A stretch of 64,000 nucleotides of DNA from Escherichia coli (GTDB lineage Bacteria > Pseudomonadota > Gammaproteobacteria > Enterobacterales > Enterobacteriaceae): assembly GCF_013122565.1 (NCBI RefSeq), contig NZ_CP053258.1; one strand, 5' to 3'. The position numbers and the translations under genes were made by a program. The notes under the pieces were generated by a model. The model was not told the DNA's origin. It saw only the letters and a list, made by a program, of their open reading frames with translations, and did no database searches. How positions within the stretch are numbered: position 1 is the first letter of the stretch; each line of letters opens with the position of its first letter. Positions 21,694 through 55,202 of the stretch are shown here, one piece after another.

Positions 21694-22878
21694 TTAACGG
21701 CTAAAGAAAGCGCGCTGGATCGCCAGTTCGACACCGCGAACTTCGGCCAGGCCTTTCAGACGACCAATTGCGGAGTAACCTGGGTTGGTTTTCTTCTTCA
21801 GGTCGTCCAGCATCTGATGACCGTGGTCCGGACGCATCGGGATCAGGTCTTCTTTGCCTTCCGCTTTACGACGGTGTTCTTCTTCAACAATCGCTTTCAC
21901 CACTTCGTACATATCAACGTCACCGTTCAGGTGCGCCGCTTCGTGGAAGGTTTTCGGGTTATCTTCACGCATGGTGGAGCGCAGATGGGTGAAGTAAATA
22001 CGCGGACCGAACTGCTTGATCATATCAACCAGATCGTTGTCAGCACGCACGCCGTAGGAACCGGTGCACATGGTGAAACCGTTCGCCATGCTGTTTACGG
22101 TATCAACCATCCACTGCATATCTTCAATGGTGGAAACAATGCGCGGCAGGCCAAGGATCGGGCGCGGCGGATCGTCCGGGTGAACCGCCATACGGACGCC
22201 AACTTCTTCAGCAACTGGAATAATCGCTTTCAGGAAGACGGCAAAGTTTTCGCGCAGCTTCGCTTTATCGATATCTTTGTACAGCTCCAGGTGCTTACGG
22301 AACTGGTCGAGGGTATACCCTTCTTCCGCGCCCGGCAGACCGGCAATGATGTTACGCGTCAGACGCGCTTTGTCTTCGTCGCTCATAGTGGCGAAGCGTT
22401 CAGCTGCCTGAGCAATTTCTTCTTCGGTGTAATCCGCTTCCGCGCCTGGACGTTTCAGGATATGCATTTCGAATGCAGCGAATTCGATCTGGTCGAAGCG
22501 CAGAGCTTTGGAGCCGTCTGGCAGCACGTATTCGAGGTCAGTACGGGTCCAGTCGAGCACCGGCATGAAGTTGTAGCACACGGTGCGAATGCCGCACTGC
22601 GCCAGGTTGCGCAGAGTCTGCTGATAGTTAGCGATCCACTGCTCATAGTTGCCAGTGTGGGTTTTGATATCTTCGTGAATTGGTACGCTTTCTACGACAG
22701 ACCACACCAGGCCTGCGTCTTCAACGATCGCCTTGCGTTTGAGGATCTCTTCTACGGACCATACTTCGCCGTTCGGGATATGGTGCAGCGCGGTAACCAC
22801 GCCAGTTGCGCCCGCCTGACGGACATCAGCTAAAGAAACCGGATCGTTTGGGCCGTACCAGCGCCAGGTCTGTTCCAT
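21694..22878 (-). CDS. uxuA: D-mannonate dehydratase
   Basis: ORF 21694..22914; start [14 protein letters not shown] at 22878 with GAGG SD; 394 aa. Confidence 0.9.
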
Positions 22879-24026
22879 GATTTTTCCTCTTTCACATAGT
22901 GGGTTCCACAGCAAAGAGACGCGGAACCCTGGAGTTGTTTAGGTATCCGGATGAACAACCAGACCGCAGCCGTGGCGTTGCATCGGATGAGATGGCGTAT
23001 AAGTTCTACCTTTTGGTAAGACATGTCAACCCGAATTCTAAAATTGGTTAACCACATCACAAGAATTTCACTCTCATGGTTGTTGATGCAAATTGCAGCA
23101 AAGGGTAATCGATGGTTATTGATCAGAGGATGTGACATTCATAGCAACAATGGTTGACCAATTTACATAACATGTCGCCCAAAATAACAATGGATTAACC
23201 TGGAGAGATAAAACGTTATTAGTTTCTCGCAGACTACGGTGGTGATTGCGCTCATGCTGTTCTACACCTCGCGGTCACGATTGGTGAGATCGTGACCGAA
23301 ACATCGCAAGAAGATTTTTACACACCAGTGTCTGATTATTTAACGACGGCCGCCCGGCGGGGTTATACGCAAGTAGTGGTGAAACCCTACTCAACCACGG
23401 CGTCGAGGTGACCAGCGTTCTGAAGCTGCCCAAAATACAATCCTCTTGCAGAGACTATCCTCTGATCGCCTATTTAAAAATGAATGTTGAACAATTAGGA
23501 AAAGGAAATGTGATTTATTACAATAACTACGGTGACTATTCTAATAATATGACTTGTGAATAAAACTAAATGATCAATGGCAATTTACTACAGATAAAAT
23601 GCCTGACGAGATTCAATCATTATATGTTTAACTTGCCAGACATTTATTTTATAATAAAGAAAAATGCACATTCGTCGATTAATATTCAACGCGTAGACGT
23701 CATATCAGATATGCTATTTAAAAGGAATTAACTCTAATGGCACACAGTATAAAGCAATGTTTCCATGCGGTTGGAAAAGGTACTCTTTATACCGGACAGA
23801 TAAAAAACATGTCTAACAACAGGCTTTTTCGTGCCAGCTATATTTGTCCAGTGTGTCACCCCATCCAAAAATTATCCACATCCTGACGTTACGTTAGATA
23901 TAGAGAAAAGAGGTTGTACTGTGCAATATGCAAACCGCATAAGCGAATATAATTTCTAAGTTGATATTGTCTGGCTGTTGGGAGCTAAGCAATATAAATA
24001 TCACCAGTTGTCAGAACGGTTATATA

Positions 24027-24052
24027 GACCAGGAGCGTTTCGGCTCCTGGTC
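24027..24052 (-). terminator. stem-loop immediately downstream of the UvrD-like helicase gene (end of the DISARM-like operon)
   Basis: gaccaggagc / gctcctggtc perfect 10-bp inverted repeat with 6-nt loop, 17 nt beyond the stop codon. Confidence 0.5.
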
Positions 24053-24068
24053 TGTTTCGGACATATTA

Positions 24069-26183
24069 TCAGTCAGCCACTAATAGCGGGCTAGGGATAC
24101 CAGATGATGAAACAAACAGCCCTTTTACGGCACGGGTTGCAGCCACATGCAGTAACGCGCGCTCATTAAATAATGCATCACGCTGTTCAACGGGATCATC
24201 GGATGCTAATGCTTTTATTTCCGGCACAACGCCTTCGTTAATTCCCACCAGGAACACATACTGGAACTCAAGCCCTTTAATACGGTGCATCGTTGCAACC
24301 CGCACGCCAGGGCGTGCATCGCTGTCACCGCTATCATTGCCTAAATTAAATGTCTCAATTCCGGCGTCATTCAGTGCTGATGCGTAGCGGTCACAAGCAT
24401 GTTTAGTACGCGCAGTAATGCAGATATCCTGAGAACGAACCTGATTCGCCAGCAATGCCTGAATTTGCTTGACGAGCGTTGCAGCCTCTTCTTTGAAATC
24501 TGCCGCATGCGTAATCATGGGCTTTTCCCCGTGCAGTAATGACAAATAATCATTACTGGTATCCGCTTCGCCATCGAGGTTATCAACCTTCACACCAGTT
24601 AACAGCCCAACAGCAAATTGACGCGTCTCTTCTGTGGTCCGATAGTTAATCTTCAATTTTTTACTGCGACGACCACGGACGTTAATACCACACTGACCAA
24701 GAACGACCTTATTGCGATAAATACGCTGATGCCCATCCCCGACAATAAACAGATCGTTGGGCGACTCGGGAACCAGGCTGCGAATAAGAGTAAATGCCGG
24801 GGCACCGATATCTTGAGCTTCATCGACCACAATACTGCTATAAGGTAGTTGAACCTGTTTTTCTTTAAACAGAACAATAGCCTCATGCATGGCATCGCCC
24901 ATTTCGCGCAGTTTGGCACGCGCCATTTGTGCTCTGAATTCTTCAAAGACTGGCCAGATTTTCGCCCGTTGAATACGGGATAACGCTGTACCACGTCCAA
25001 CCCGGCTGACTTTGAGGTATTCCTCCCGGGTGTAAACCGCATTTGGCTGGACAACGCGTTGCCACTCTTCAGCATAGAAATTGTCAGGTAGCCCCAGTTC
25101 GGCAGGTGCCTGCTGCAAGGCATAGTTCCAGCATTTGCGTCGCCCTTCATCGCTGTCGTATACCACGCGGAAATCATAACCGTGGCGTTTTAGTTGGTCG
25201 CTCATCCAGGCATCAATGTTAACGACGTCAATACGCGCCATCTCTTCTCGCGTACACAACCGCTGGAGATTAGCGCGAATATCTGCCGCCAGGTTACGCG
25301 TAAATGTCGTGAAAAGTACCTTCTTACCGGGTTTATCTGCCAGACGCTGAGATAACCACCGCGCACGGTGCATCGCAACAACCGTTTTCCCTGTACCTGC
25401 ACCACCCAGTACTCGTACCGGACCATTAGCGGGCGACTCCACCAGTTTTCGCTGGCTCGGATGCAGAAATACACGCCATTTTTCTAAAGGCGCATTAAGC
25501 ATCTGCAACAGCTCCTGTTCATTTTCAACGACATGGAAGCGACGTTTACTTCGTTCAATCGCCTCCATAAAGTCGTTGGTATCAACAGGCTCATCACGAT
25601 GATCGTTAAACTCTTCCAGCACTTCCTGGTAATCCAGCCCTTCTGCCAGCCAGTGCAGAGGTTCCCAGGCTTCTGCTGGCATTATGCTTTCAAGTTGATT
25701 AAGCCCGGCTTCATCGGTAAGCGCCATCACCTGATCAATAAAGACAGGCGGCACACCCAGGGCCAGAATCTGTTCCGCGCTGTAAGCTGCGAAGAGTTTC
25801 GGTTTATCAACCACCGTTTCCGCTGCCGGTTTGATATAGCTAATATCAATGACCTGAATCGCGCCGGTAACCGGGTGAATCGAACAATCATGCCGCCGCG
25901 CCCAGTCGTATGCTTCGTCGTGTTTATCCACCCACATCAGCATATACAGGGCACCCTGTTCAGGTTTCAGAACAATGCCGCGATAAGTTTGATCGATTCG
26001 CACCGAATGGACATTTTTACTGCGCGCATCGTGGATCTTTTCATAGTTAAGTCCATTACTGGTCGGGTCCTGACGGAATTTGGAGATGAATTCCTGCACC
26101 TTTTTTTGCTGTGCTTTTGGGATCCGCGCGAATGCGCCCAGAAAACCATCAGAAAGTGCCACCTTGGGCGTTTGCACCGTCAT
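24069..26183 (-). CDS. UvrD/Rep-type SF1 helicase with an uncharacterized ~200-aa N-terminal domain
   Basis: 704 aa; Walker A VLGGAGTGKTVVAMHRA, motif II IVVDEAQD, C-terminal VATMHRIKGLEFQYVFLVG; ATGA overlap with the upstream gene. Confidence 0.8.
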   Translation of the reverse strand: MTVQTPKVALSDGFLGAFARIPKAQQKKVQEFISKFRQDPTSNGLNYEKIHDARSKNVHSVRIDQTYRGIVLKPEQGALYMLMWVDKHDEAYDWARRHDCSIHPVTGAIQVIDISYIKPAAETVVDKPKLFAAYSAEQILALGVPPVFIDQVMALTDEAGLNQLESIMPAEAWEPLHWLAEGLDYQEVLEEFNDHRDEPVDTNDFMEAIERSKRRFHVVENEQELLQMLNAPLEKWRVFLHPSQRKLVESPANGPVRVLGGAGTGKTVVAMHRARWLSQRLADKPGKKVLFTTFTRNLAADIRANLQRLCTREEMARIDVVNIDAWMSDQLKRHGYDFRVVYDSDEGRRKCWNYALQQAPAELGLPDNFYAEEWQRVVQPNAVYTREEYLKVSRVGRGTALSRIQRAKIWPVFEEFRAQMARAKLREMGDAMHEAIVLFKEKQVQLPYSSIVVDEAQDIGAPAFTLIRSLVPESPNDLFIVGDGHQRIYRNKVVLGQCGINVRGRRSKKLKINYRTTEETRQFAVGLLTGVKVDNLDGEADTSNDYLSLLHGEKPMITHAADFKEEAATLVKQIQALLANQVRSQDICITARTKHACDRYASALNDAGIETFNLGNDSGDSDARPGVRVATMHRIKGLEFQYVFLVGINEGVVPEIKALASDDPVEQRDALFNERALLHVAATRAVKGLFVSSSGIPSPLLVAD

Positions 26184-29100
26184 TTGTCACCTCCGGACAG
26201 ATGTTGCAATGTATTTTCGTCAATTGGCCCGAATGCAACGTGCCAACCTCTGGTTGTGAATAATGGAATAAATTCTTGATTATCAATAATCAATGCCCAT
26301 TTTTGTGATGGCCAGGCGAGATCGGCTTCTGCAATAATTTCACCCTCATCATTTTGCAATTCGTAGCCGAGAGTCGGCGCAGAGAGAGAATGAGACTGAA
26401 GCAACGCGATCTCTTCAGCGCTTAATAAGCCAAACTCAATAATCTCAGCCCAACTTTCATCAGTCTCTGGTACTGCCTCTGGCGTTGCCGAAACTTTAGT
26501 GTCAACGCTTTCCTGCGGTAAATGCACGGCTTTACGGCTGGTAAAGGTCATATCCGGCAGGAACTGTAACAGGTTTACCAGTCGCCAGAAGCCATTGAGT
26601 CCCGCTTCATAACCGTCATCCTGCGTATAGCGATCGTCAAAACAGATATGCAAACGCAGCCAGCTGCGCATTTGTGCGACGCTGGTCGTCGGTTTAATGG
26701 CTTGTTGTGGTAACACCGAAGCCAGTTCAATAAATTGCTGCGATGAGTTACAGCTATCGAGTAAACCACCAAAGACAAACGGTTCGTCTGGCAAAAGCTC
26801 TGCTAGCCGCCAGGCTGGCGCGTTTTCCTGCATTTCATAGGCATACTTTTGTTTCGTTCCCGCGTCCTGTGACTTCTTCACATCCAACCACACCCAGGCA
26901 TGTGCAGCAGCCATTCTCTGCCATAACTGCGTTCTTCCGCCCGGATCGGCGAGATAATCCAGCAGCAGTGCAAAACTGTTACGTTCCCGGAACGACGCTT
27001 CAAGGGCCGCAAAGTTGGTATCGTGAAACAGGTTATAAAACTTAGGCTGTTTCATATCCGGGTTATGCCCAAGTCCCAGGACATCCTGAACATGTTTAAG
27101 CCCAGGCTCTTTGAGATCGGCCCACGTGACTGTCCACACCCAGAAATTACCGCTATCCCGAATCGCCTGGCGTTTTTGCACATCCTCTGCGACGCTATTT
27201 TTGTGGAACGCAAAGCCATCAAGGAAAATAGCCACCGGTTTAATGGCATCAGACTGCATAAGCGGATATAGCACGTAATCCGGGCGACAAGGGATCCCCA
27301 CCGCCTCTTTAGCGCCTAAATCCACCTGAGCTTTAAGATGCCAGCTCATCATCGGTTCGCTGCGGGTGTTAATAATCCACCCAGCGCCCTGATGCGCGTA
27401 ACTGCGACTGACAATCAGGTTTTTATTTTCTTGCAGGCAGCTAATAAACCGTTTTTCCAGCTCACTGCCCATCATGGCTTCGAGGGAAATGTTTTTGATG
27501 GAATCAATTACCCGTATCGAATCTCTTGCCTGCAAAATTTTCGCCAGCAAGAGACGCGCCTGATCGCGGGAGACATACTTCATGCGCCCACGGTCACGGT
27601 AAGCGTAAACGCAACGATAACAACCATCTTTATGCGTATCATTGTTGCAACTGCATTCCACTATTGCCTGATAGGCCAGTTCAAGTAATTTCAGCAAATT
27701 GTCGGGAGTGCGCATCAGCTCTTTAAGAGAACCAGTTCCCCCCGGGACGGTATCGTAAATCACCAGATACTGCCGCCAGGATTCGCCTTCATTTTCCGGC
27801 TCGCGGTACACAACGCCTTTCAGGTGATCGACATTCCCCTTGAAGTAATGCTTAAGGCCGAGCTGGATCGCCGCCCCAAGAGAAGCCTCCACGACACGGT
27901 CATTACTGTAACTGCTTACCGGGAGCAGAATACGCAACGCTTCTGACTCCAGCTGGCGATAGAGGTAGAGATAATCTTCGAACTTCGCCTTTTCCGGTTC
28001 CGTGCGATATTTGCAGCTCAAATCATGACGTGGTTCATGATCGCGAGGACGCTGCACCATGCCGCACCCGAGGCAAACTTTAAACCCGGTTCGCTTCTTC
28101 GCTTCTCCGGCAATCATCAACTCATTGGCATCATCCGCCATTTTGCCGAAGTTGATATCCCGCAGGGTGACTTTGCTTAAAAATTCAAAACCAAACGGAA
28201 CTTCGCCTTCCTCAATCGCGTATGCCGCCGATACATCTTCTTTTTCGAAACTAACCAATAGCTGACGCTGGAAGAAAGCAGGTTCACGGCTGTCGCTCTC
28301 GTCGCTGATCTGGCTATCACGTGCGCTGGCGCGGGCATAAACCTGGCGAAGTTTCAGCAGCGTGGTTTTTTGTCCGGCATCGGCCCACCCCGGTGTGCCA
28401 CATTTCGGGCAATATTTATGCTGGTCGCCCGTCTGGTCGATATTTTCGCTGTAGTTACAGTGGCTACAGATACGCCAGTTCTCCGGCTCAGAGACCTTCA
28501 GGTCTATCTGCTCAATTTCAACTTTATGCCCACCGGCATAGAAATTATTCAGCGGAGCCAGCTCAGCCAGCGCCGTTGATGCCGGGCGTTCATATTCGAA
28601 AGTGGTGTTTTGATATTCACGCGCTTCCCCGCCTTCTTTACGCCGCCAGAGCACAGAACGTAACGTAATACCGGCTTCCGGGAAGGCGTAGTTAGGCAGC
28701 AGCCCTTCATCCGTGAGGAAATTCAGCGTTTGCTTATTGTTGATTTGATTGACCAGCGCCATCAGCGCCTGTCGTTCTGAAGTTAACTCGCGCATATCGC
28801 TATCAAAGTTTTGATCGCGCGGCGCGTTCTCCAGTTTATCGATACTGCGCTTGAGCTTATCGATGCGTGAGCGCAAAGATTTGCGATCTTCCACCAGCAG
28901 TTTTAACGCTTCTTCGATACGCTGCACCAGCGAGCGTTGTCCTGGCGCGCCCTGAAGATAAGACAACAGCTGTTGGCGAGTTTCTGCGGCAAGATCGGGG
29001 AAGATCGCCGTAAATTGTGCAGCAATCTCCGCATGATGCTGTTCGATATATCGCAGTAAGTTATACGGAAAACCCGATTTACGCCCGAACTCCAGCTCAT

Positions 29101-32100
29101 CCAGCATCTGTTTGACGTTTTTACAGATAGCGGATTCTGGTACACCGGTTTTCACCCAGTTATCCATACAAAAAGCTGCCAGCTGGCGTTCGAGAATAGC
29201 CGTTGCATTGAGGAAGACGCCAGGAGCCTGCACCTGGCCCTGCATCATCTCCAGCGGTTCTTCAAAGAAAAACTGATCGTGCGGGTTCCCTTCTGCCACG
29301 GTAATGTTTAACGCGTTACCATCTTTACGACCGGCGCGACCAATACGTTGCAAGTAGTTGGCCTGAGCAGGTGGGACAGAACAGAGTAAAACGGTGGAAA
29401 GATCCCCAACGTCAATACCCATCTCCAGCGTCGGTGTTGCCGACAACAGGTTGATATTCCACGGTTGGTTGCCGCGGTAGAACGATTTTTCGGTGGCTTC
29501 GCGATCTTCACGGCTAAGCAGCCCCGTGTGTTCTGCGCCCTGCACGCGCGCGATGTCCATGTTCTCCCAACGCCAGGTCGCCATATTGTCGACTTCCTGG
29601 TAACGACCTTCACAACGTAAAGAGAGACAAGGCGCATTACGCCACTGCCAGCCTTGATCGGCCGGAGCCCGGACAACCTCACGGCAACATGAGCAATTAA
29701 GCTGAACGACGTCACGGCTCACCACCAGCGCCGAAGGCACCAGTCCCCAGGCTTCACGCCCTTTGGTGTCAAAATCTTTTACTACTCCGGCTATTTTCAA
29801 CGCCGTAAACAGGCGTCGTAACACCGTTTCCGCAACGCTACTGATAAACAGATTATTGCCGTTACTCAGCGTGCGATTGATCCAATGCTGATACCAACTG
29901 GGGTTAGACTTCGCGCCAATCAGGCGATGGAAACCATTAATTTTTTCAAACGACGCATAAGCCGGTTTACGCGTTTTCGGACCGATAGAAGGCATATAGC
30001 GCGAGGTACGCTCTTTTTGCGTCATCATAAAGGTCGTGCCATCACGGCGATAACTTTCGAACGCCGGATGCATAACGGCCCCGGCCTGGCGTTGATACCA
30101 GATAACCCCCAGCGCCAGGTGCGCTACCTGCTCGACGCTCACACCGGACATCTCATCACCCAGCTCTTCACAAAGCTGTTGATGCAGGGCGGTAATTGCC
30201 GGATTAAAGCGTTCTTTATCCACTCCGGCAACGGCATAACCGGTGGCTTCCAGCGTACGTCCGATACGCGCGCGCAGGGTAAATTCGCTGTACACCTCCC
30301 AGTCGAGGCGCAGGGAAACCAGCTCCGGCAGATCGGAGTTCTCCGCCAGTTTGCCTTCATTTTTCAGCGTCTGATAATCATTCAGCCACTGCATATTTGG
30401 TGCGATGAAGTTCGCTGCAAAATGAGCATCGTCCGGTGAACGTTCACGCGTTTGTTGGCAAACACGCGCCGCGAACGCATCCAGCGGTAATGTCTCTTTT
30501 TCGCCAAGAACACTGGCGATTTGCCCACGAATCATCAGCGGCCAGGTACGGGCAGTAAAGAAGCTGGCACGATGCGCGGCGTCTTGTACCGAGTCAGAAA
30601 ACGTAATCAGCTTTTTATGTTCGTTGAACTGGCTGCCATAAAGCTGGTGAATCATCACCGCCGACAAACTAGCAGCCCGTGACCCCAGGATCGAAATCCC
30701 CTGTTTGCTGTTGCAGTACGGGCATTCATTAGCAAACTCCAGCTCGTCCTTACGCTCTTTGAGCATATCCGGGATCAGTACCTGCAACAGTTCCGTATGA
30801 CCGCAATATCCACACTGGACGCTGGACTGTCGGTTCAGTTTCAGACAGGTAGGGCATAGTTTCTGGTGTGCGCCACTGACCGCTTTTTCGTTGTTATCCG
30901 GGAAAGCAAGGACGATGGAGCGCCCTTTTTCAAAGAACTGGCGATAAATGCCGTCGAGGTCTGTTTCCAGCTGAACGCTTTGCCCATGACGCAGGCTGGC
31001 CCAGCCGGTTGCATGGCAGTCACGGCAGTGGATAACCGGCAAATAGTGTTCGCGATCTTCCACCGCCACATCATCGGCAAACACCAGTCTCGGCGTTTTC
31101 GCCACGCTGGCGACCAGACGACGCATCTCACGAAGCCACAACTGGGAACGCAGTTGCACAAACGGCAACACCGGGCGCGCTTTCTTCGCCTGGAGACGTT
31201 TTTGCCGATCGTGGTCCGTTTCCGGTACTTCGAGACGTGCCTGCGCGATCAGCGCCAGAATGCTTTGCAGCACGCTTCGGGCATGGTCGGCGCTTTCTGC
31301 CAGCATGACCTGGAGATTTTCCAGACACTCTCGTTCAGAGAGGATACCGCCTTGCAGATCATGGAGTAAGACATGCATCACGCTGTGGCGGCGTAACAGT
31401 GACCCCAGCGCAATACGCTTTTCACGCCCGTCGTCGCTCTCCAGATCGTCCGGAAGCTGCAAGTCGCTGTCGGGGAACCACAAAGGAATTTGCCCGTTGA
31501 GATACGCCACCGGGGTAGCGTAACTCTGCGGGTCCAGGGCCGAAGCGACCTCCGGCCCCGGATACTGACTGTACGCAATGGCGTAATCCTGCAAGTACTC
31601 CGCTGCCGTGTAGCGATCTTCGCGAATAACGGCGTCATCGGTAAACGGCTGGTCAAAGATTGTTTTTGCGTAATCGAGCAGTTGCCCCAGTTCGTCGCCG
31701 ACGGTAGCTGATGTCCCGACGCAGGCGAATCGTTGGTTATCCACACCTATGTGATGCTTCAGACGTCGCACCAGACAGGCCAGATCCGACCCCTGCGCGC
31801 CATCAAACGTATGCAATTCATCCACGACCAGGTAACGCAATGAACCGGGCTGGTTGTAACGCCAGAGCGGCTGATCGCCAGGGCGCATCAGCAGGTAGTC
31901 GAGCATTTTGTAGTTGGTCAACAGGATGTCCGGCGGGCTTTCGCGCAGCGTGTGCTTGCAGGTAATGACCTTTTCTGCCGACATTTTTTTGCTGGGTTCG
32001 ATTTCGCTGTCGCCGACAAACAGGCCGACGGTCACCTTGCCATGCAGTTGTGGATCGCTGGCGATGGTTTTGGCGAAACGGCTGGCCTGATCGGTTGCCA

Positions 32101-32521
32101 GGGCGTTCATCGGGTAGATGATAATCGCTTTAACCCCGGCTTGTGACGCGCCCGCGCAGTGGTTGAGCAGCGGGAACATAAAGCATTCTGTTTTACCGGA
32201 GCCGGTACCGGTAGCGACCAGCGTCGGCTGTGGCGCGTCGCTTCCCAGACGCTGAAATGCCCGGGCCTGATGCGCGTGCGGCGGGAACGGCAGCGTCAGA
32301 TTAGGGAAGAAATTCAGCGGTAAGTCACTTTTACGAAACGGCAACTGGGCGGAAAGGTATGGTCCTTTCAGCAGCGTTTCGGGCTGGGCCAGAAATTGCT
32401 CCAGCATTGAGACATTATCGTTATTCTCACCGTTAAACAGCGGGCTGTTTAGCGGGAACGCCGCCCGTAAAAAGGCGGCAACGCTGTCGGCGACCTGCCG
32501 ACTGACAACGGACGGCAACAT
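26180..32521 (-). CDS. giant helicase with C-terminal Cys-rich Zn-ribbon region (DUF1998-like); fused DrmA/DrmB-like, DruE-like
   Basis: 2113 aa; Walker A GTGSGKTECF, DEAH-type motif II VVDELH, helicase C region (QRIGRAGRKDG), several CxxC pairs (CSHCN...CPKCG, CLGCG, CYRCVYAY); 1-nt stop/start overlap with the methyltransferase gene. Confidence 0.8.
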   Translation of the reverse strand: MLPSVVSRQVADSVAAFLRAAFPLNSPLFNGENNDNVSMLEQFLAQPETLLKGPYLSAQLPFRKSDLPLNFFPNLTLPFPPHAHQARAFQRLGSDAPQPTLVATGTGSGKTECFMFPLLNHCAGASQAGVKAIIIYPMNALATDQASRFAKTIASDPQLHGKVTVGLFVGDSEIEPSKKMSAEKVITCKHTLRESPPDILLTNYKMLDYLLMRPGDQPLWRYNQPGSLRYLVVDELHTFDGAQGSDLACLVRRLKHHIGVDNQRFACVGTSATVGDELGQLLDYAKTIFDQPFTDDAVIREDRYTAAEYLQDYAIAYSQYPGPEVASALDPQSYATPVAYLNGQIPLWFPDSDLQLPDDLESDDGREKRIALGSLLRRHSVMHVLLHDLQGGILSERECLENLQVMLAESADHARSVLQSILALIAQARLEVPETDHDRQKRLQAKKARPVLPFVQLRSQLWLREMRRLVASVAKTPRLVFADDVAVEDREHYLPVIHCRDCHATGWASLRHGQSVQLETDLDGIYRQFFEKGRSIVLAFPDNNEKAVSGAHQKLCPTCLKLNRQSSVQCGYCGHTELLQVLIPDMLKERKDELEFANECPYCNSKQGISILGSRAASLSAVMIHQLYGSQFNEHKKLITFSDSVQDAAHRASFFTARTWPLMIRGQIASVLGEKETLPLDAFAARVCQQTRERSPDDAHFAANFIAPNMQWLNDYQTLKNEGKLAENSDLPELVSLRLDWEVYSEFTLRARIGRTLEATGYAVAGVDKERFNPAITALHQQLCEELGDEMSGVSVEQVAHLALGVIWYQRQAGAVMHPAFESYRRDGTTFMMTQKERTSRYMPSIGPKTRKPAYASFEKINGFHRLIGAKSNPSWYQHWINRTLSNGNNLFISSVAETVLRRLFTALKIAGVVKDFDTKGREAWGLVPSALVVSRDVVQLNCSCCREVVRAPADQGWQWRNAPCLSLRCEGRYQEVDNMATWRWENMDIARVQGAEHTGLLSREDREATEKSFYRGNQPWNINLLSATPTLEMGIDVGDLSTVLLCSVPPAQANYLQRIGRAGRKDGNALNITVAEGNPHDQFFFEEPLEMMQGQVQAPGVFLNATAILERQLAAFCMDNWVKTGVPESAICKNVKQMLDELEFGRKSGFPYNLLRYIEQHHAEIAAQFTAIFPDLAAETRQQLLSYLQGAPGQRSLVQRIEEALKLLVEDRKSLRSRIDKLKRSIDKLENAPRDQNFDSDMRELTSERQALMALVNQINNKQTLNFLTDEGLLPNYAFPEAGITLRSVLWRRKEGGEAREYQNTTFEYERPASTALAELAPLNNFYAGGHKVEIEQIDLKVSEPENWRICSHCNYSENIDQTGDQHKYCPKCGTPGWADAGQKTTLLKLRQVYARASARDSQISDESDSREPAFFQRQLLVSFEKEDVSAAYAIEEGEVPFGFEFLSKVTLRDINFGKMADDANELMIAGEAKKRTGFKVCLGCGMVQRPRDHEPRHDLSCKYRTEPEKAKFEDYLYLYRQLESEALRILLPVSSYSNDRVVEASLGAAIQLGLKHYFKGNVDHLKGVVYREPENEGESWRQYLVIYDTVPGGTGSLKELMRTPDNLLKLLELAYQAIVECSCNNDTHKDGCYRCVYAYRDRGRMKYVSRDQARLLLAKILQARDSIRVIDSIKNISLEAMMGSELEKRFISCLQENKNLIVSRSYAHQGAGWIINTRSEPMMSWHLKAQVDLGAKEAVGIPCRPDYVLYPLMQSDAIKPVAIFLDGFAFHKNSVAEDVQKRQAIRDSGNFWVWTVTWADLKEPGLKHVQDVLGLGHNPDMKQPKFYNLFHDTNFAALEASFRERNSFALLLDYLADPGGRTQLWQRMAAAHAWVWLDVKKSQDAGTKQKYAYEMQENAPAWRLAELLPDEPFVFGGLLDSCNSSQQFIELASVLPQQAIKPTTSVAQMRSWLRLHICFDDRYTQDDGYEAGLNGFWRLVNLLQFLPDMTFTSRKAVHLPQESVDTKVSATPEAVPETDESWAEIIEFGLLSAEEIALLQSHSLSAPTLGYELQNDEGEIIAEADLAWPSQKWALIIDNQEFIPLFTTRGWHVAFGPIDENTLQHLSGGDK

Positions 32522-35500
32522 CAGGCGCTCTCCTTATCTTGTGCAAAGAACGCCCAGGCCACTTTGTAGTCGTCTTCGCGATCCGGCTTGATAAACGGTG
32601 CCTGCCAGGTGACGGTACGGCGCTCGCCTTCGTCGCTGCGGGTATAGTCATCAAAGGTGACGCTGACGGTACCAGTTTTAAGATGTTTGACATCATCCCA
32701 GCCGATGGCTTGATCGGTGCAGTCACCGCCGGTCCACTCCGGGCTGTCGACGTTAAAGACAAAGCCGTTTTTCAGGTCAGCTTTACGCGCGGTACGCGGC
32801 AGACCGACGCCCACCAGCCCTTTGCTTGGGGTAAAGATGATGCGGCCGTTTTGGTCGTACCAGGTGTCCGCTTCGTACTGACGCATCACCGGGAACTGAA
32901 CGCGATAAATGGTAAGCAGTTCTTCGAGGGTTAACCCCAGCGCCTGCGCCACCAGTACGTCGATTTCCACCAGCGCCTGACGACGACTGTAGTCAGAGCG
33001 TAAGGCGCAGTTACGCTGCCACTCTGGGGTCAGATTGGTGAAGAAATCCTGGGGGAGCTGCGGGAGATCGCGGCTCCAACGCTGGGTGTTGAAATCTGGG
33101 GTGTAGCAGGATTGCCAGAGATCGGCATAACTTCTCACTAGCGATACAAGGCATAGAGCCCGACTATGTAGTGCTGTACGATAAGCATCATTTGTAAGTA
33201 CTGGCAGTTGGTTAATAAGAGAGGTATTGGCATGCCCCATACCCGTACTTTTCACACGATAATCCAACGGTACAGAAAGAGTCATCGAAAAATAGTCAAG
33301 CAATAATTGAGTATCTTTAAACGCCGTTCCAAGACAAGTATTTATATGGCTCACACCTGGTGGCACAATTGTTGTAATTAATGTTCTTTCAGATGATGGA
33401 CCTATCATTTCACGATTAACAAAACGATAATAGTCCGTCACCTTCCTCGGCTCGTCTTCATCCTGCTCTTTCCACGAAACCCGTGGGGTGCGCTTTGCAT
33501 ACTCCTGTGCATCACAGGCTGGAATATAGTTAGTGCGCGGCAAATAGTCGTCGGGCAGAGTTAGCAAGTCCAGGCAGTCATAATGTCCTTTCTCTGTGCA
33601 AATTTCTCTCGGCGTTTTATAAAGCGGTGTTCCAACATAGAAGTGCGGACCAGACAAAATCCATTGGGATGCGTCTTCCGGGAATTGGGTATGCCGTTCG
33701 ATTGTGCCATCACTTTGTTGATTTGTTTCATGCCACATTTCAAGAGACAAATATTGCCCCTGCAAATCCCCCAGCCGTTTAGGTTGCTTAGCGAATTTTT
33801 CAAGTACAGAAACAAGCGGTTCAGCATGAAGCGCTGGGAGTCGAGCTTCAAGATCCGGCGTTCCCTCTTCATCATAAAGAGTGGCAAATAGTGCAAGCCG
33901 TTCCATTCCAACGGTCAAAATACGGCTTTGATGCCCCGCTTCATTCCAGGAACCTGTTTCGTCATCTTTAATGCCGCCAACTTCACCGGAACCATCATGC
34001 GCAAGACAAAGCTCGATCGTTTTGGCTGAGAAAAGGTTTGCAATATTGATAAAGCCGACAGATTGATTCGGTGAAGCCGTATAAATATTAATGCTGAATT
34101 TAACCCTGTGACCAATAGGGAAAAGCATATGCTGATTCTGAAACTGAAAATGTGCCCTCAGTCTCGGATACACTGCCGCACGAAGCTGCCCGCCTTTCGG
34201 GTCATCATAAATCCCTTCCGGGTGCAGGAAACCTGACACGCCTTTCTGCGCCCCTAAGCGCCAGGCCTGAGGCAGGAAGCATTTATACAAGTTGGTCTGC
34301 ACCCCGCGCAGTACCGGGTAGTTCTGCTGCGCATTGAGGAAGTTTTGCATCCCTTCACAGCCTTCATACTCGCTGCGCCAGGCCGCTTCCAGCGCCGGGA
34401 TCTGGTTGAAGGTATCAATACGCAACGTTGCCAGCTTCGATGCACTCAGCTTACGTAGCACAAATTCCGGCTCGTAATCACCCAGCACGCCCGCTTCCTG
34501 CCATTCCACTTTCAGCCACGGCGGGTTTCCGAGCATCAGGTCAAAACCGCCGCGCTCGGCAAACAGGTCGCAGAACTCCAGATCCCAGTGGAAGAAACGG
34601 TGCTGCTTTCTCAGGGCATCGACAATCGCCAGACGCGGTAAATGACGGAACAACACCTCAGTTTTCAGACGACCTGCGCCGGAAAACAGTGAAGACTCTT
34701 CTCGCAGCAGGCCTTCTTCGGCAAACAGATCACCAGTGGTGTGCTCCGCAACTTCAGTGACTTTTTCCGTAATTACAATCCCGTCGAGCAGGGTTTCAAT
34801 CTCAAACAACCAGGTGCCGCGATCCGGTAACTCATCGGCTTTGTCGATCGGCCAGAACCACAGCGCGCACCAGTAGTCCATTACCCAACGCAGCTTCTGG
34901 TAGGCGCTGTTATCTTCAAGACGACCACTGAAGGTTTCATCTTTACTGCTCAGCGAAGAACGCGTCTGCTCGCTGTTTTCTGCCGGCCACACCGGGTAGC
35001 TGTCGGCGGTTTTCAGACGTTCTGCTTTAAGTTGCTGGCGATAGGTGTTCCACAGTGCTTCCACCTTTTCGCTGATACGCTGCACATCAGCAATCTCATG
35101 CCCGGCAAAGCTTTTAATAAACTCTTTGCGCCAGCTGTCCAGCGCTTTGAAGTCATCCGGATAACGCTGCTTAACGGTTTTATCGCTGTAGTTAGCCATA
35201 CCGCCGTCGGGCAGCAGGAAGTGGAAAATCTGCGTCTCTTCACGCGGCGTGTTCATCGCCAGCTCGACCGGTTCGCTGTTAAGCCAGCTCGGATCTTTGG
35301 CTTTTTTGTAGGTCAGTTCGCTCTTGTTGAACACCTGACGGCGCGCGCCCACCAGCGAGTTACCGCAGTGCAACTGGTAACCAAACCACGGTACAAACGC
35401 ATCGCCACTAATGGCGTTCAGCCACAGTGACACTTCCGCCAGTTCCACCGCCACCGGGTTTAAGTCCACGCCGAAAACGTTGTTGTCGGCAATGTACATT

Positions 35501-37437
35501 TTCACCCGCTGTAACTCCTGGGTGTAACGATCCTGCGGAATACGGCGACCTTCCGCCTGCTGCTTATGGAACAGATACGCTTCCGCCAGCTGGTTGATGG
35601 CTTCGTTAAGGAACGCCGCGCTGCCCATCGCCGGTTCGCACACGGTGAGGTTTAAGATGGCGTCGGCTTTGGCGTGCGGATCGCTAATGGGATCAATCTG
35701 CTCCTTAAACAGTTCTTTCAGAGCATATTTAACCAGTGAGCGGGTCAGCACTTCCGGGGTGTAATAAGATGCAGATTTCTCACGGTCGCGCCCGGCCATA
35801 CGGTAGATAAAACTGCCTTTGCGGTGAATGCGCAGACTGCCGTCTTTCTCGTAGACCTTCTCGTCTTCGTGGTATTTGCCAATCTCATCCTTACTGACGA
35901 AGTAACCCGTCTCCAGCTCGTTAAACTCTTCCCCGGCTTTCTTCACCTCGTAGAGATCTTCGCTGGCGAAGAATCCGCGATAGGAGAGCAGCGCCTCATA
36001 CACCGCACCCAACTGGTTGATACCCAACTGGCGATAAGATATACGTCCACGGCGGTTAAAGCGCCCTTTGCCCGGGCGGCTTAACGACATCGCCTGGATA
36101 ATCTGTTGCAGGGTTTCGTTACGGAATACCACGCGGTTAAGAATGCGGGTGTTGTTGGCATCGAAAAGATGACTTTCCAGACGCGGGACGCTGAACTGAT
36201 GACTATGGATGGTGATCCGGTCGCCGCTCTCCAGGTCACTCTGCATTTTCACGCCGCCGTTGTAGCCTTCGCGCACCAGTTTAAACAGCATATTCAGGCT
36301 GTCGTGGAAGTAGCGCCCGTTGCGATCTTCTTCGCTGGTCAGCGGGATCATCTCCAGATCGCGCAACGTTTCCAGGCTGTAGCCCTGTAGATAGGTTTTG
36401 GCGGTCATTGGCGCATAACCCAGCTCCGGGCGCGCTTCAATGTAGAACAGGAACAGCAGGCGGTACATGTAACGCAGACATTCGCGGCTCAGTTCATCCG
36501 GGTCCACCGCACGGTTACCGGTATAGTTTGCCAGGCCACGGTCGATCAGATAATGCATCGCTTCGTTGCCCAGCAACTCAATGCTTTCGCGCAGGGCATA
36601 TTTCAGATCTTCCGAAACACCAAACGCATGTTTGTGCGAATTGTCATCCAGCGAGTCAAGATAAGGTGCCCCACTGCCCGGCAGCAGAGAATCTTTATGT
36701 AGCAACACCGCCGTCGCTTTCAGCGTATCCGTTTCACGACGACTTAAAATCTCTTCAAAATCAAAACGTAGCAGACGGTTTTGCGCCCACTTAGTACGGT
36801 CCAACAACAATAGCTGACGGTTACCGAGCAGCAGCACAAAACGCGGCGGTTCATTTTGGGTGAAGACCGCCGTAGAGAGCAGATCCTGCCAGCTGCGATA
36901 TTCACCGTTGGCTTTTTTGCGCAGGCTGTCGCGCTTATGTTTGTCGGTATCCGCCGGGAATTGCGCGGTCAGTAAGGAGAGCGCCAGCGGATCCAGCGTT
37001 CCTTCTTCCTGATCGTGTGCTTCAACAATCCACAGCCACGGGCTACCGTCAGTGCTGTTGTAACGCGCCAGTACCGGCAGTGGTGTATCGTCATCCAGCA
37101 TTTGGATCTGCGGCGTAATTTCGTAGCCCAGCGCCTTTAACAATGGCTGCCAGCGATTACGTTGATCGGCCAGACGCTGCGGGATCTGACGCTGTTTTTC
37201 GTGCTCGGCAAGTTTGCGGAAAAACTCAGTCGCCAGACTGTTAAACTGGTTCCACGGAGCGCGGTATCCCGGCTCCACGTCTTTGCCCTGTTCACGAGCG
37301 GCACGTTCCGCTTCACGCGCTGCATTTTCCTGGGCTATCCAGGGTTCCAGCACATCGCGGATATCACTGGTGAAAACCTCACCCAAATAATGGTTAGAGT
37401 AAAATTCGTTTTCGTTATTAATACCGACCAGCGCCAT
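32521..37437 (-). CDS. large N6-adenine DNA methyltransferase (Eco57I/PglX/DrmMI-like, gamma-class)
   Basis: 1638 aa; AdoMet motif I CEPAMGSAAFL and catalytic motif IV GNPPW; starts 2 nt after the SNF2 gene stop, with a GGAGGG SD inside the SNF2 coding end. Confidence 0.8.
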   Translation of the reverse strand: MALVGINNENEFYSNHYLGEVFTSDIRDVLEPWIAQENAAREAERAAREQGKDVEPGYRAPWNQFNSLATEFFRKLAEHEKQRQIPQRLADQRNRWQPLLKALGYEITPQIQMLDDDTPLPVLARYNSTDGSPWLWIVEAHDQEEGTLDPLALSLLTAQFPADTDKHKRDSLRKKANGEYRSWQDLLSTAVFTQNEPPRFVLLLGNRQLLLLDRTKWAQNRLLRFDFEEILSRRETDTLKATAVLLHKDSLLPGSGAPYLDSLDDNSHKHAFGVSEDLKYALRESIELLGNEAMHYLIDRGLANYTGNRAVDPDELSRECLRYMYRLLFLFYIEARPELGYAPMTAKTYLQGYSLETLRDLEMIPLTSEEDRNGRYFHDSLNMLFKLVREGYNGGVKMQSDLESGDRITIHSHQFSVPRLESHLFDANNTRILNRVVFRNETLQQIIQAMSLSRPGKGRFNRRGRISYRQLGINQLGAVYEALLSYRGFFASEDLYEVKKAGEEFNELETGYFVSKDEIGKYHEDEKVYEKDGSLRIHRKGSFIYRMAGRDREKSASYYTPEVLTRSLVKYALKELFKEQIDPISDPHAKADAILNLTVCEPAMGSAAFLNEAINQLAEAYLFHKQQAEGRRIPQDRYTQELQRVKMYIADNNVFGVDLNPVAVELAEVSLWLNAISGDAFVPWFGYQLHCGNSLVGARRQVFNKSELTYKKAKDPSWLNSEPVELAMNTPREETQIFHFLLPDGGMANYSDKTVKQRYPDDFKALDSWRKEFIKSFAGHEIADVQRISEKVEALWNTYRQQLKAERLKTADSYPVWPAENSEQTRSSLSSKDETFSGRLEDNSAYQKLRWVMDYWCALWFWPIDKADELPDRGTWLFEIETLLDGIVITEKVTEVAEHTTGDLFAEEGLLREESSLFSGAGRLKTEVLFRHLPRLAIVDALRKQHRFFHWDLEFCDLFAERGGFDLMLGNPPWLKVEWQEAGVLGDYEPEFVLRKLSASKLATLRIDTFNQIPALEAAWRSEYEGCEGMQNFLNAQQNYPVLRGVQTNLYKCFLPQAWRLGAQKGVSGFLHPEGIYDDPKGGQLRAAVYPRLRAHFQFQNQHMLFPIGHRVKFSINIYTASPNQSVGFINIANLFSAKTIELCLAHDGSGEVGGIKDDETGSWNEAGHQSRILTVGMERLALFATLYDEEGTPDLEARLPALHAEPLVSVLEKFAKQPKRLGDLQGQYLSLEMWHETNQQSDGTIERHTQFPEDASQWILSGPHFYVGTPLYKTPREICTEKGHYDCLDLLTLPDDYLPRTNYIPACDAQEYAKRTPRVSWKEQDEDEPRKVTDYYRFVNREMIGPSSERTLITTIVPPGVSHINTCLGTAFKDTQLLLDYFSMTLSVPLDYRVKSTGMGHANTSLINQLPVLTNDAYRTALHSRALCLVSLVRSYADLWQSCYTPDFNTQRWSRDLPQLPQDFFTNLTPEWQRNCALRSDYSRRQALVEIDVLVAQALGLTLEELLTIYRVQFPVMRQYEADTWYDQNGRIIFTPSKGLVGVGLPRTARKADLKNGFVFNVDSPEWTGGDCTDQAIGWDDVKHLKTGTVSVTFDDYTRSDEGERRTVTWQAPFIKPDREDDYKVAWAFFAQDKESA

Positions 37438-37439
37438 GA

Positions 37440-40298
37440 TTAACCCTCCGCTCCGGTGATAACAGCAATTACCTGAATGTAGGGTTCTTTTTCAGTCGTC
37501 ATGGTGTCCTCAATCCATTCGATATAGCTGTCAAAATTGTGTTCGATTTCGCGTTGTCTCTGCTCTTTACGGCTCTGCTTGACTGACAATTGCTGTTTGT
37601 TATCGGCAAAATCCAGCTCAAGTTGGCTCAACTGCCGCCCACGCAAAACGTCCAGCTTTTGCAGATGCTCGTTCAGTTGCTGGTTAATGTGCGTTTCAAA
37701 CGCATTCCGATCATGGATAAATACCTCCCGGGCATGCGCAATAGCCGCTTCCAGTAAATCCTGCTGGCGCTGGTGATTACGATCTTTACCGCCGCTGTTA
37801 GTCAGATTGTTACTCAACTGCGGATGACGTTGTAAAAACTCAGCGAATGGCTGACTGCCGATTAGCGATTCACGGTCAAAGCTCACCACTATCCACGGGT
37901 TCACCATCGGATGTGATTTACGGTTCGGGAATAACCCGGAAAGAATGAAGTGATCTTCATCGGGTTCAAGCAGGTATGGCAGACGGATAACCGGTGCCTG
38001 ATGACGACCAAAAGCCGAAGAGATTTTATCGTCCAGCCACTGCACTACCGGGTTGATTTGCCAGAGATACTGCACATCGGGCCAGGCATGTTGCTCACCG
38101 CGAGCGCGCGCAATCGCGTCGGTGATGACGGTTTTATCCTGACTTAAATAGAGCTGCCAGTTCTCCGGGGCAATTTCAGGCGGTAGCTGGTTGAAGCGGC
38201 GGCGTAACTCCTCCGGTGCCACCAGCGACAAGGTATTATCAGGCAAGGTTTCATACTGGATAGTTTGACCACTGGCTTTCAGGTAACCCAATGCTCTTTC
38301 ACAGTACGCCTGTTCGCTGGCAAACAAGCTGGTGTCTGTTTCGGTAACCATTGAGGCATCGCTGGAAACCGCACTGCATATTTCGCCAAACAGATCATGT
38401 TCGGCGCTTTCCGAGACGTTGCTGTTCAGCAGTTGATCAAACAGGCTGGCACCATCATCCTGCATCATGAACTCTGCAACCTGCTCTTCTTCCTCTTCCT
38501 GGGTAAATTTGCCGGTAAACTCCGAACTGTCCCCAATGTTCTTCTGCGCCTGTTCGTCTTTGTTGATCAACACTTCCAGTACGCGCATATCGCCATTGAT
38601 CTGTGGTTCGCTGGCCTCGGTAAGCAGATAGCGGATTTGAGGCTGATGTTTTTGCCCATAGCGGTCAATACGCCCGTTACGTTGCTGGAATACCATCAAC
38701 GACCACGGAATATCAAAGTGAATCATTTTGTGGCTAAGGTGATGCAAGTTGATCCCTTCAGATGCCACATCCGAACAAACCAGAAGACGCAACGGAGACT
38801 GCGTTTTACCAAAGGCTTCTACGGTTTCCATCAATACCGTATCGCCCTGATCGCCGCGCAGCGTGGCGATCTGGTCATCTTTCAATTTCAGATCCGCTCG
38901 CAGTTGCTGTTCGAGGAACTCCAGCGTTTTAATACTTTCGGTGAAGATCACCAGGCGATCTTCCGTGTTATTGGCTTTCCAGGCGAGGTCTTTTCGGATG
39001 GTGTCGAGCAGCAACTGGTATTTGCTAAACTGGCTGGCATCAATGTTATTCAGCGCCAACAGCAATGACTCCAGTTCGTTGATCTGGCTCTGGCTATTAT
39101 GATCTTTACGGCTCTCAAGACGCTTCAGACGATTCGCCACTACGCTGGCACACGCCATCGGGCTGGAAAATAGCGCTTTTTCGAGGGTTATCTTGAACAG
39201 ACGACCTTTGTTAGACTGGGCCTGTTCATCGTCATCATCACGGAACTGGCTCTCAACCAGGCGACGGTATGCTTCTTCTTCGGCACCAGATGCCAGGCGA
39301 GTCAGTTTGACAATATTGCGCTCGGGGAACTCGCCGGACATCTGATCTTTCACGTCTTTTTTGAAGCGACGGACAACCAGATTTTTATCGGCAAAATCGG
39401 CGTATTCATACTCTTTCGGGTTGGCGATCGCCGTCGGGTCAAGCATGTTCATCAGGCTGGCAAAACTTTCAGCCTTACCATCATGCGGTGTTGCTGAAAG
39501 CATAATCAGCGTATCGCTGCGCCCGGCGAGCAGTTTTGCCAGTTTACTGCGTAACGAACTGGTTCCACGTTCTGCGACGTTATGGGCCTCATCAATGACA
39601 ATAATATCCCACCAGGCATTTTCCAGATGGTGACGATATTCAATGTCTTGTTTCAGCGTATCGATGGAGATAATGGTCTTGTCAAAATAGTGGAACGGGT
39701 TGTGGTTGGTTGGGATGCGGTTACGCACCTTTTGTAAACCAGCAGAATCCAGGCGGGTCAATGGGATCGCAAAACGGCTCCAGAACTCCTTCTGGAATTG
39801 TGTCAGCATCGATTTAACCGCCAGAACCAGAATACGTTTTCCGCGCCCACGACGGATCAGTTCCGAAACCAGAATACCGGCTTCCAGCGTTTTACCCAGA
39901 CCGACAGCGTCGGCAATGAGTATCCGCTGGCGCGGTTGTGCCAGCGCCATCCGCGTAGGATCGAGCTGAAACGGCATGGAATCCATCGCCGCCAGATGAC
40001 CAAAATGGACTTTACTGTCTGTCGGTACGCGTTGGCGTAACTGACTTTCAATATACAACTGTGCCGCTTGATAATTGGCGGATTCATCTTCCACCAAATG
40101 CGTTTTTGCGGGATCAAGGATCTCTACTTTTTGTTCCAGTTTGGTCAGAAATAACCCTTCTTTACCGCGCACCAGCTCTGAAATACCATCGCAGGTCAGC
40201 AAATACCCACCATCACCACTGTCATCCGCCCGGCGAATACGCCATTCGGCATCACGAATAACCACCCGCATACCAGGTGCATAATTTTGCTTATTCAT
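37440..40298 (-). CDS. SNF2-family helicase/ATPase (DrmD-like)
   Basis: 952 aa; Walker A DAVGLGKTLEAG, DEAH-box IVIDEAHN, helicase C motifs (HFDIPWSLMVFQQRNGRIDRYGQ). Confidence 0.8.
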   Translation of the reverse strand: MNKQNYAPGMRVVIRDAEWRIRRADDSGDGGYLLTCDGISELVRGKEGLFLTKLEQKVEILDPAKTHLVEDESANYQAAQLYIESQLRQRVPTDSKVHFGHLAAMDSMPFQLDPTRMALAQPRQRILIADAVGLGKTLEAGILVSELIRRGRGKRILVLAVKSMLTQFQKEFWSRFAIPLTRLDSAGLQKVRNRIPTNHNPFHYFDKTIISIDTLKQDIEYRHHLENAWWDIIVIDEAHNVAERGTSSLRSKLAKLLAGRSDTLIMLSATPHDGKAESFASLMNMLDPTAIANPKEYEYADFADKNLVVRRFKKDVKDQMSGEFPERNIVKLTRLASGAEEEAYRRLVESQFRDDDDEQAQSNKGRLFKITLEKALFSSPMACASVVANRLKRLESRKDHNSQSQINELESLLLALNNIDASQFSKYQLLLDTIRKDLAWKANNTEDRLVIFTESIKTLEFLEQQLRADLKLKDDQIATLRGDQGDTVLMETVEAFGKTQSPLRLLVCSDVASEGINLHHLSHKMIHFDIPWSLMVFQQRNGRIDRYGQKHQPQIRYLLTEASEPQINGDMRVLEVLINKDEQAQKNIGDSSEFTGKFTQEEEEEQVAEFMMQDDGASLFDQLLNSNVSESAEHDLFGEICSAVSSDASMVTETDTSLFASEQAYCERALGYLKASGQTIQYETLPDNTLSLVAPEELRRRFNQLPPEIAPENWQLYLSQDKTVITDAIARARGEQHAWPDVQYLWQINPVVQWLDDKISSAFGRHQAPVIRLPYLLEPDEDHFILSGLFPNRKSHPMVNPWIVVSFDRESLIGSQPFAEFLQRHPQLSNNLTNSGGKDRNHQRQQDLLEAAIAHAREVFIHDRNAFETHINQQLNEHLQKLDVLRGRQLSQLELDFADNKQQLSVKQSRKEQRQREIEHNFDSYIEWIEDTMTTEKEPYIQVIAVITGAEG

Positions 40299-50195: not shown

Positions 50196-50406
50196 CCTGC
50201 CTTCCTTTGATACAATTCGTAACAGGTTACTATCATCATAAAAAAGCTCAACCCGATGAACTCGCTAAAAATGAGACAAATCATTTATATCTCGAAAAAA
50301 CTTGTTACAATCATGAGCGCTACACCGAACTTAACCATATAAATTATGTGTGTTTTGTTTATTTTTTAAACGATTACAACTATCCATTATTTACACAGGT
50401 ATCAAA

Positions 50407-52059: not shown

Positions 52060-52065
52060 TCGATC

Positions 52066-52773: not shown

Positions 52774-52776
52774 GAG

Positions 52777-53915: not shown

Positions 53916-54090
53916 AAGATAAATAAAATTATTCTGATTTGTGACTCAAATTACAAAAGTAGTTAATGGCATAACTTGTCTTGTTTTTATGGTATAACAG
54001 GTATAAAGGTATATGCTATGGTTCGCCTCATACTTAAAACTTCCCTCATACGGGTGAAGGTTAAAGCTTGGTAGACAGGAGACAGTCACA

Positions 54091-55197: not shown

Positions 55198-55202
55198 CGC
55201 TT

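Follow-up and report, generated by a model that had tools for sequence, protein, structure and literature searches.

Near-certain identification of an Escherichia coli gene as armD of an ARMADA type II anti-phage operon, encoding a RelE-like domain fused to an SF1 helicase core

The 64,000-nucleotide stretch of Escherichia coli DNA analysed (contig NZ_CP053258.1; hereafter the window) carries four consecutive genes, all on the minus strand, as are all the armABCD features located below. The first, armA (37440-40298), encodes a 952-aa SNF2 (DrmD/BrxHII-like) helicase (PADLOC DrmD, E 1.4e-99); armB (32521-37437) encodes a 1638-aa PglX/DrmMI-like (type IIG-like) adenine methyltransferase (PADLOC REase_MTase_IIG, 1.4e-281; DrmMI, 2.3e-57); armC (26180-32521) encodes a DEAD-box helicase of 2113 aa, YprA/DruE-like, that also contains an MZB/DUF1998 module and a predicted Vsr-like nuclease; and armD (24069-26183) encodes a 704-aa protein with an ATG start, matched by PADLOC GajB (2.5e-36) and by Pfam UvrD-helicase and UvrD_C. 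The junctions, from armA to armD, consist of 2 nt, a 1-nt overlap and a 4-nt overlap. At the last of these (26180-26194), the armD ATG (26183-26181) shares bases with the TGA (26182-26180) of the armC open reading frame to form ATGA, and the Shine-Dalgarno sequence GGAGG (26194-26190) lies within armC, 6 nt 5' of the ATG. The armD stop is a tandem TGA-TAA, followed after 15 nt by a stable hairpin (24026-24053) with a GC-rich 11-bp stem (AGACCAGGAGC/GCTCCTGGTCT) and a 6-nt loop, whose free energy of -22.5 kcal/mol (z = -4.75) was equalled by none of 200 shuffles. The original prediction, made from the letters alone, had described a UvrD-like helicase gene at these positions, an ATGA overlap with the giant helicase gene upstream and a stem-loop closing the operon. 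The first two were borne out, the helicase by the open reading frame, Pfam, PADLOC and the SF1 motifs; the hairpin exists too, and its function as a terminator is only inferred, since it has no U-tract and a consensus terminator scan makes no call there. It may act at the end of the operon as a terminator or as a stabiliser of the RNA. An Rfam search of the whole window gave no match.

The gene is almost certainly armD, which comes fourth and last in armABCD, the operon of the ARMADA type II anti-phage system. This identification is based on gene order, on PADLOC, NCBIfam and Pfam matches, and on the numbering of residues in two of the proteins. Bell et al. 2025 (PMC12458937), one of two preprints of that year on this locus, define ARMADA type II by a strict order of a BrxHII-like helicase, a PglX-like methylase, a YprA-like helicase and a GajB-like helicase, and PADLOC reads the present genes in that order (DrmD/BrxHII, IIG methyltransferase/DrmMI/PglX, DruE, GajB); type I, as described there, has the same three-gene core and no ArmD. 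K110 and D234 of ArmC, and K266 and D454 of ArmD, have the same numbers as the residues mutated in that work. The same authors predict that the C-terminus of ArmC holds an active nuclease of the Vsr-type PD-(D/E)xK kind together with degenerate copies, and the corresponding motifs are visible here: PDYVL...FLDGFAFH (residues 1746-1773) and the degenerate ADLAW...LIIDNQEF (residues 2065-2084). Li et al. 2025 (10.1101/2025.09.22.677730), the other preprint, give the operon as z5899-z5902 (armD being z5902) in O-island 172 of strain EDL933, and the present ArmD is effectively the same protein as that of NCTC 12900 and EDL933, with the same armABCD order, neighbours, architecture and K266/D454 numbering and no substantive difference.

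The original prediction called the genes coupled to this one DISARM-like; the likeness to class 1 DISARM (DrmD, DrmMI, DrmA, DrmB, DrmC) is partial. Both systems have a SNF2 helicase (here DrmD-like), a large adenine methylase (here DrmMI-like) and a YprA-family helicase with DUF1998/MZB. Judged by sequence, ArmA and DrmD, and ArmB and DrmMI, are homologues and not equivalogs, ArmA scoring 349 bits against the NCBIfam DISARM_DrmD model, under its cut-off of 610. In contrast to DISARM, there are no separate DrmA and DrmB; both modules lie in the single 2113-aa ArmC, which is closer to DruE (PADLOC DruE3 4.7e-104, 347 bits, versus DrmA 4e-14, 49 bits; DruE3 and DruE1 were the top families; Pfam DEAD, Helicase_C and MZB, PF09369), as expected of a YprA-family helicase from the ARMADA/Druantia clade, and ArmD is an extra gene. 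Neither PADLOC nor Pfam gave a match to DrmC or to a PLD domain in any of the four arm proteins.

The arm operon lies in a defence island of the O-island-172 type, beside Druantia III and Zorya II; the Druantia III genes druH and druE are directly upstream (40522-50195), with near full-length PADLOC model matches. RefSeq annotates an identical arrangement, flanked by uxuA and nanM, at an E. coli locus with 99.6% identity. Among 5426 complete E. coli genomes, 533 (about 10%) carry armD, the best matches reaching 99.6% DNA identity. The idea that the island is far more conserved than its flanks was dropped: compared with the best E. coli match, identity is 99.2% for the core uxu genes and 99.6% for armD.

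The gene, the system, the N-terminal fold and the requirement for defence were already published in September 2025, and the present result is the correct identification of a published component, not a discovery. What is added here is an independent confirmation of the fold, a set of invariant residues, counts of linkage and of gene junctions, and the occurrence of the RelE-helicase cassette in other systems; these four additions were not found in the sections consulted of the two ARMADA preprints, and part of them could be in the supplementary tables. The later literature that was found concerns Druantia III and not ArmD.

Residues 240-704 of ArmD (24072-25466) form a complete SF1 UvrD/GajB-like ATPase core. 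The full set of SF1 motifs is present, including the Walker A motif GAGTGKT (residues 261-267, with K266; 25383-25403), the Walker B motif VVDEAQD (residues 452-458, with D454; 24810-24830), GDGHQRIY at 482, INYRTT at 512 and MHRIKGLEF at 632. All the Pfam matches (UvrD-helicase, 4.8e-23; AAA_19; UvrD_C) are from residue 241 on, the solved structures nearest by sequence are PcrA, UvrD1, UvrD and Rep, and the NCBIfam models for PcrA, Rep, UvrD and HelD match the core only, with scores roughly a tenth of the curated thresholds. The best PADLOC family is GajB (E 2.5e-36), and the resemblance to Gabija includes the arrangement of the genes, an accessory SF1 motor being encoded right after the main nuclease-bearing protein. 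Unlike GajB, whose model matches from residue 240, ArmD has a 240-aa N-terminal extension; and its partner is a YprA-family helicase-nuclease rather than GajA, an OLD-family ATPase-TOPRIM protein. PADLOC gave no GajA match among the six neighbouring proteins, and the gene upstream of armD is armC.

The phenotypes published in PMC12458937 include protection against 13 of 80 phages by armABCD cloned from E. coli NCTC 12900 and the loss of that protection after each single arm gene deletion, armD included. In ArmD, the Walker A mutation K266A abolished defence and the Walker B mutation D454N caused its partial loss. When infected, cells with ARMADA excluded propidium iodide and kept a normal metabolism, and they were protected even at high multiplicity of infection (PMC12458937), indicating that the defence of ARMADA II is direct and non-abortive. 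In EDL933 (10.1101/2025.09.22.677730), the armD deletion sensitised the strain to phage Bas18, less than the deletions of armA, armB or armC, so ArmD may be an enhancer, not a core effector, for some phages. In the same study, uninfected arm deletion mutants grew like the wild type.

The N-terminal region of ArmD was described in the original prediction as about 200 residues bearing no assignable motif. Pfam gives no match in residues 1-180, to the ParE_toxin, YoeB and YafQ families or to any other, and Pfam, NCBIfam and PADLOC searches with the full-length protein give none in residues 1-240; the stretch is really about 240-260 residues long, ending at the Walker A motif, and contains a recognisable fold. 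Residues 1-115 (25839-26183) form a RelE/YafQ/YoeB-like toxin-fold domain, that is, a RelE/ParE-type fold fused to the helicase, which was checked independently of the published assignment; residues ~135-195 (25599-25781) form a small all-alpha domain, without a known structural relative. Sequence methods alone do not assign the N-terminal domain. The remote homology search that had been proposed gave nothing significant: a profile built from the N-terminal alignment and compared with PDB sequences retrieved helicases only and no toxin, hhalign of the same domain against E. coli YoeB (sequence checked against PDB 2a6q) gave a plausible register at a non-significant E of 0.077, and against YafQ a meaningless 7-residue match at E 0.61. 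With Pfam blank and these E values, the residue correspondence with the toxins is drawn from the fold and from the secondary-structure register. With residues 1-249 as the query, 286 homologues were retrieved, those beyond the enterobacteria having 41-53% identity, and a few of the 286 carry the label "RelE" in JGI.

Conservation was examined in 65 complete ArmD-like proteins from species-level genomes of many phyla, including Pseudomonadota, Desulfobacterota, Acidobacteriota, Verrucomicrobiota, Cyanobacteria, Bacillota, Bacteroidota, Synergistota and Campylobacterota. E48, R62, R68, H88 and W94 are invariant (65/65), D89 is missing from only one protein (64/65) and Y92 from three (62/65), and the RelE-like domain and the helicase core are comparably conserved (mean top-residue frequency of 0.635 versus 0.599). 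The weak hhalign alignment (E 0.077) pairs E48 with YoeB E46, R62 with R59 and R68 with R65; by secondary-structure register only, H88 and Y92 fall at YoeB H83/Y84 and YafQ H87/F91. The YoeB and YafQ residues corresponding to E48, R62, R68, H88 and Y92 are catalytic in those toxins, and the residue pattern points to a retained active site in the RelE-like domain of ArmD. The domain differs from the type II toxins RelE, YafQ, YoeB, HigB and ParE in being fused to a helicase and in having an extra beta-hairpin. There is no antitoxin gene beside the region encoding the domain, the DNA upstream being the 3' end of armC, which leaves no room for one.

A profile of the N-terminal region retrieved 3118 cluster representatives at E<=1e-3, of which 612 also passed E<=1e-30. 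The contigs encoding one metagenomic homologue were too short to be of use. Full-length ArmD-like members have 680-750 aa, and the domain is N-terminal in nearly all of the best 150 profile matches, the exceptions being a few truncated entries. When one genome of each species was scanned, at least 581 genomes proved to contain a relative of ArmD; 80 of these loci were fetched, and the 71 with at least 1.5 kb of upstream sequence were assessable. In 64 of the 71 (90%), the next gene upstream is ArmC-like and has the same orientation. At the 68 junctions between an ArmC-like stop and an ArmD-like start, the modal arrangement is a 4-nt overlap (25/68); 36 overlap in some way and 47 are within 5 nt. 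The claim that the ATGA overlap implies stoichiometric co-expression is supported by this conserved tight junction as far as coupled expression goes. The exceptions to the linkage include a Pseudomonadales MAG with the permuted order ArmC, a 2.4-kb gap, ArmD and ArmA; a Vibrio ezurae homologue at the end of a DrmA-DrmB-...-NERD-helicase cluster, a DISARM context; a Holophagaceae MAG homologue preceding genes for an unknown protein of 1014 aa and for a DruE-like helicase; and a Vibrio albus homologue that comes after Tiamat TmtA. Three further upstream-assessed loci have no recognisable partner gene.

The explanation that best accounts for these results as a whole, namely that the protein is ArmD of ARMADA II and works in the way set out here, is in our judgement very probable. 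The conserved tight armC/armD junction suggests that ArmD is made together with ArmC and would act bound to it or beside it on phage nucleic acid. Its SF1 motor would use ATP to translocate on phage DNA or on replication or transcription intermediates, and may thereby feed or license the Vsr-type nuclease of ArmC. The RelE-like domain would most likely grip or cleave RNA locally (phage transcripts, or the RNA in hybrids) and not shut down host translation globally. Canonical RelE toxins work in the ribosomal A site, into which the 704-aa ArmD fusion may not fit, and the non-abortive character of the defence counts against bulk mRNA cleavage by ArmD. An RNA-directed role of the N-terminal domain is a tentative assignment that we hold at close to, and not above, an even chance. 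The fuller version, in which the domain is an active RNase with a YoeB-like E/R/R/H/Y site, carried by the SF1 helicase to phage nucleic acid as a direct, non-abortive and RNA-directed arm of a DNA-targeting system, and in which the RelE-helicase cassette is a portable module for several large helicase/ATPase systems, is possible and, taken in its entirety, rather doubtful.

The alternative that survives best is that the RelE-like domain is catalytically dead and has a docking or sensing role, binding for instance ArmC, a phage protein or a nucleic-acid end, ArmD then contributing helicase/ATPase activity only. This has a substantial, if minority, share of our confidence. ParE-type members of the RelE fold act by protein binding, and GajB of Gabija would be the analogue of such a helicase. 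It fits less well with E48, R62, R68, H88 and Y92, polar or charged residues at the YoeB/YafQ catalytic positions, which are more like an active site than like a binding surface kept across phyla.

The original prediction had proposed that ArmD may substitute for the missing DrmC nuclease as effector or sensor; as an effector it would replace the PLD enzyme absent from a DISARM-like operon. No protein of the operon is of the PLD/HKD type, ArmD is extra relative to class 1 DISARM, and it is required for defence (PMC12458937); nevertheless, we consider the proposal very unlikely. It is unnecessary because ArmC bears a predicted Vsr-type nuclease of its own (PMC12458937), with its motifs seen here; ARMADA type I functions without ArmD (PMC12458937); ArmD does not have a DNA-nuclease fold; and an ArmD-like gene is also found beside the DrmA-DrmB pair of DISARM in Vibrio ezurae.

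ArmD can also be imagined as an abortive-infection toxin. Cami1, the CRISPR-associated RelE-family protein of PDB entry 8phb, is activated by cyclic oligoadenylate, causes growth arrest and acts downstream of type III CRISPR. By analogy, the ArmD helicase would sense phage DNA, the RelE-like domain would be freed, and ribosome-bound mRNA would be cut globally. ArmD differs from Cami1 in having a helicase in place of the CARF domain, and ARMADA II is non-abortive. Such a toxin is very unlikely, given that infected ARMADA cells are viable and protected at high multiplicity of infection (PMC12458937) and that, without infection, deletion mutants and wild type grow alike (10.1101/2025.09.22.677730).

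That ArmD is a housekeeping repair helicase (a UvrD, Rep or HelD paralogue) merely located beside the island, as the resemblance of its core to PcrA, UvrD and Rep could suggest, is refuted by where the gene occurs and by the deletion phenotypes in print: equivalog scores lie some 10-fold under the NCBIfam cut-offs, only 533 of the 5426 complete genomes have the gene, an ArmC-like gene accompanies it in 90% of the assessable loci across phyla, and its deletion abolishes defence (PMC12458937). The outcome that had been named as fatal to a defence role, an N-terminal domain of the housekeeping accessory kind in a dispensable gene, is not what is found: the domain is RelE-like, and the armD deletions described in the two preprints abolish or weaken defence.

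In strains of the EHEC O157:H7 type, phage resistance is determined predominantly by ARMADA II, and the presence of armD in about 10% of complete E. coli genomes makes it relevant to phage therapy. ArmD is the sole component of ARMADA II without a counterpart in DISARM or Druantia. Residues E48, R62, R68, H88 and Y92 are precise targets for mutagenesis and, together with the junction and the natural variants, make the role of the RelE-like domain testable. If the modular reading is true, the RelE-helicase cassette plugs into ARMADA II (about 90% of the loci) and into DISARM DrmAB, Druantia-like DruE and Tiamat TmtA contexts. Some long ArmD-like variants also contain sigma-70 region 4 domains and domains resembling the alpha-CTD of RNA polymerase, a hint that they may be connected with transcription complexes.

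The ARMADA II operon (armABCD, minus strand) is directly adjoined by Druantia III and Zorya II (window 40522-53880). The genes bordering ARMADA II are druE (40522-46845) and druH (46836-50195), both on the minus strand and both belonging to Druantia III; the same island harbours the Zorya II genes zorA (50350-52059), zorB (52066-52773) and zorE (52777-53880), all on the plus strand. The three systems together constitute a tripartite island of the O-island-172 type. The GC content of druH and zorABE is 38-41%, whereas that of armABCD is 50-56%, which suggests that the parts of this island have differing origins.

Past the operon's other end, armD is separated from uxuA by a spacer of about 1.15 kb (22915-24068), with a GC content of approximately 47% over positions 22001-24000. 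No ORF that starts inside this spacer exceeds 52 aa, Rfam gave no match to it, and the terminator scan made no call there. The boundary of the island and the regulatory region of uxuA probably both lie within it. Further out, positions 1-13000 gave no PADLOC matches; the best-matching E. coli genomes are 97.8% identical here, with the match split into four pieces, and are annotated with yjiJ/yjiM and with espX6, which encodes a pentapeptide-repeat effector of the T3SS. A 1746-aa ORF at 7637-12877 is the counterpart of the inverse autotransporter iatD. At the other end, downstream of zorE (approximately 54000-64000), the best-matching E. coli records carry annotations for nanM, for a nucleotidyltransferase toxin of the AbiEii/AbiGii family and for proteins with DUF4942 and DUF932. 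Only 26 complete E. coli genomes have 80% or more of this stretch in common with the window. Bell et al. (PMC12458937) discuss satellite-like MGEs with a phage-like 'moron' end, and the gene content of the stretch is similar to that end. The armD gene itself (24069-26183) is present in 533 of the 5426 complete E. coli genomes; 22 of its places are plasmid-borne, and two copies are found in a few genomes.

Two features of the C-terminal part of ArmC, the 2113-aa YprA/DruE-like helicase encoded at 26180-32521, were not picked up by Pfam: a Vsr/DUF559-like PD-(D/E)xK motif (PDYVL...FLDGFAFH) at residues 1746-1773, accompanied by a degenerate second copy; and a tail of about 75 residues (2021-2096) that PADLOC matches to the C-terminal portion of ZorE from Zorya (5.9e-09). 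The same ZorE-like tail is carried by Tiamat TmtA (4.7e-09) in a Vibrio albus locus (L015, 557-16949), where TmtA is followed by an ArmD-like gene; its neighbours also include CARF/Csx1, a type I restriction enzyme and some ORFs similar in size to zorABE.

Other ArmD-like genes outside the canonical ARMADA II order were found in Vibrio ezurae (L011, 334-12151), after DrmA-DrmB, a UvrD fragment and a NERD helicase; in a Holophagaceae MAG (L014, 9980-20588), before an unknown 1014-aa protein and a DruE-like helicase; and in a Pseudomonadales MAG (L081, 1106-15039), with the permuted order ArmC...ArmD-ArmA. Rare ArmD-like variants of 1391-1595 aa (P0255, P0237 and P0248) also occur outside the window, in which the RelE-like domain and the UvrD core are extended at the C-terminus by about 650-850 aa. 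In P0255 this added part has repeats resembling the RNA polymerase alpha-CTD (PF03118, 9.1e-08) as well as a sigma-70 region 4 domain (PF04545, 1.7e-08), hinting at a connection between these long variants and transcription complexes.
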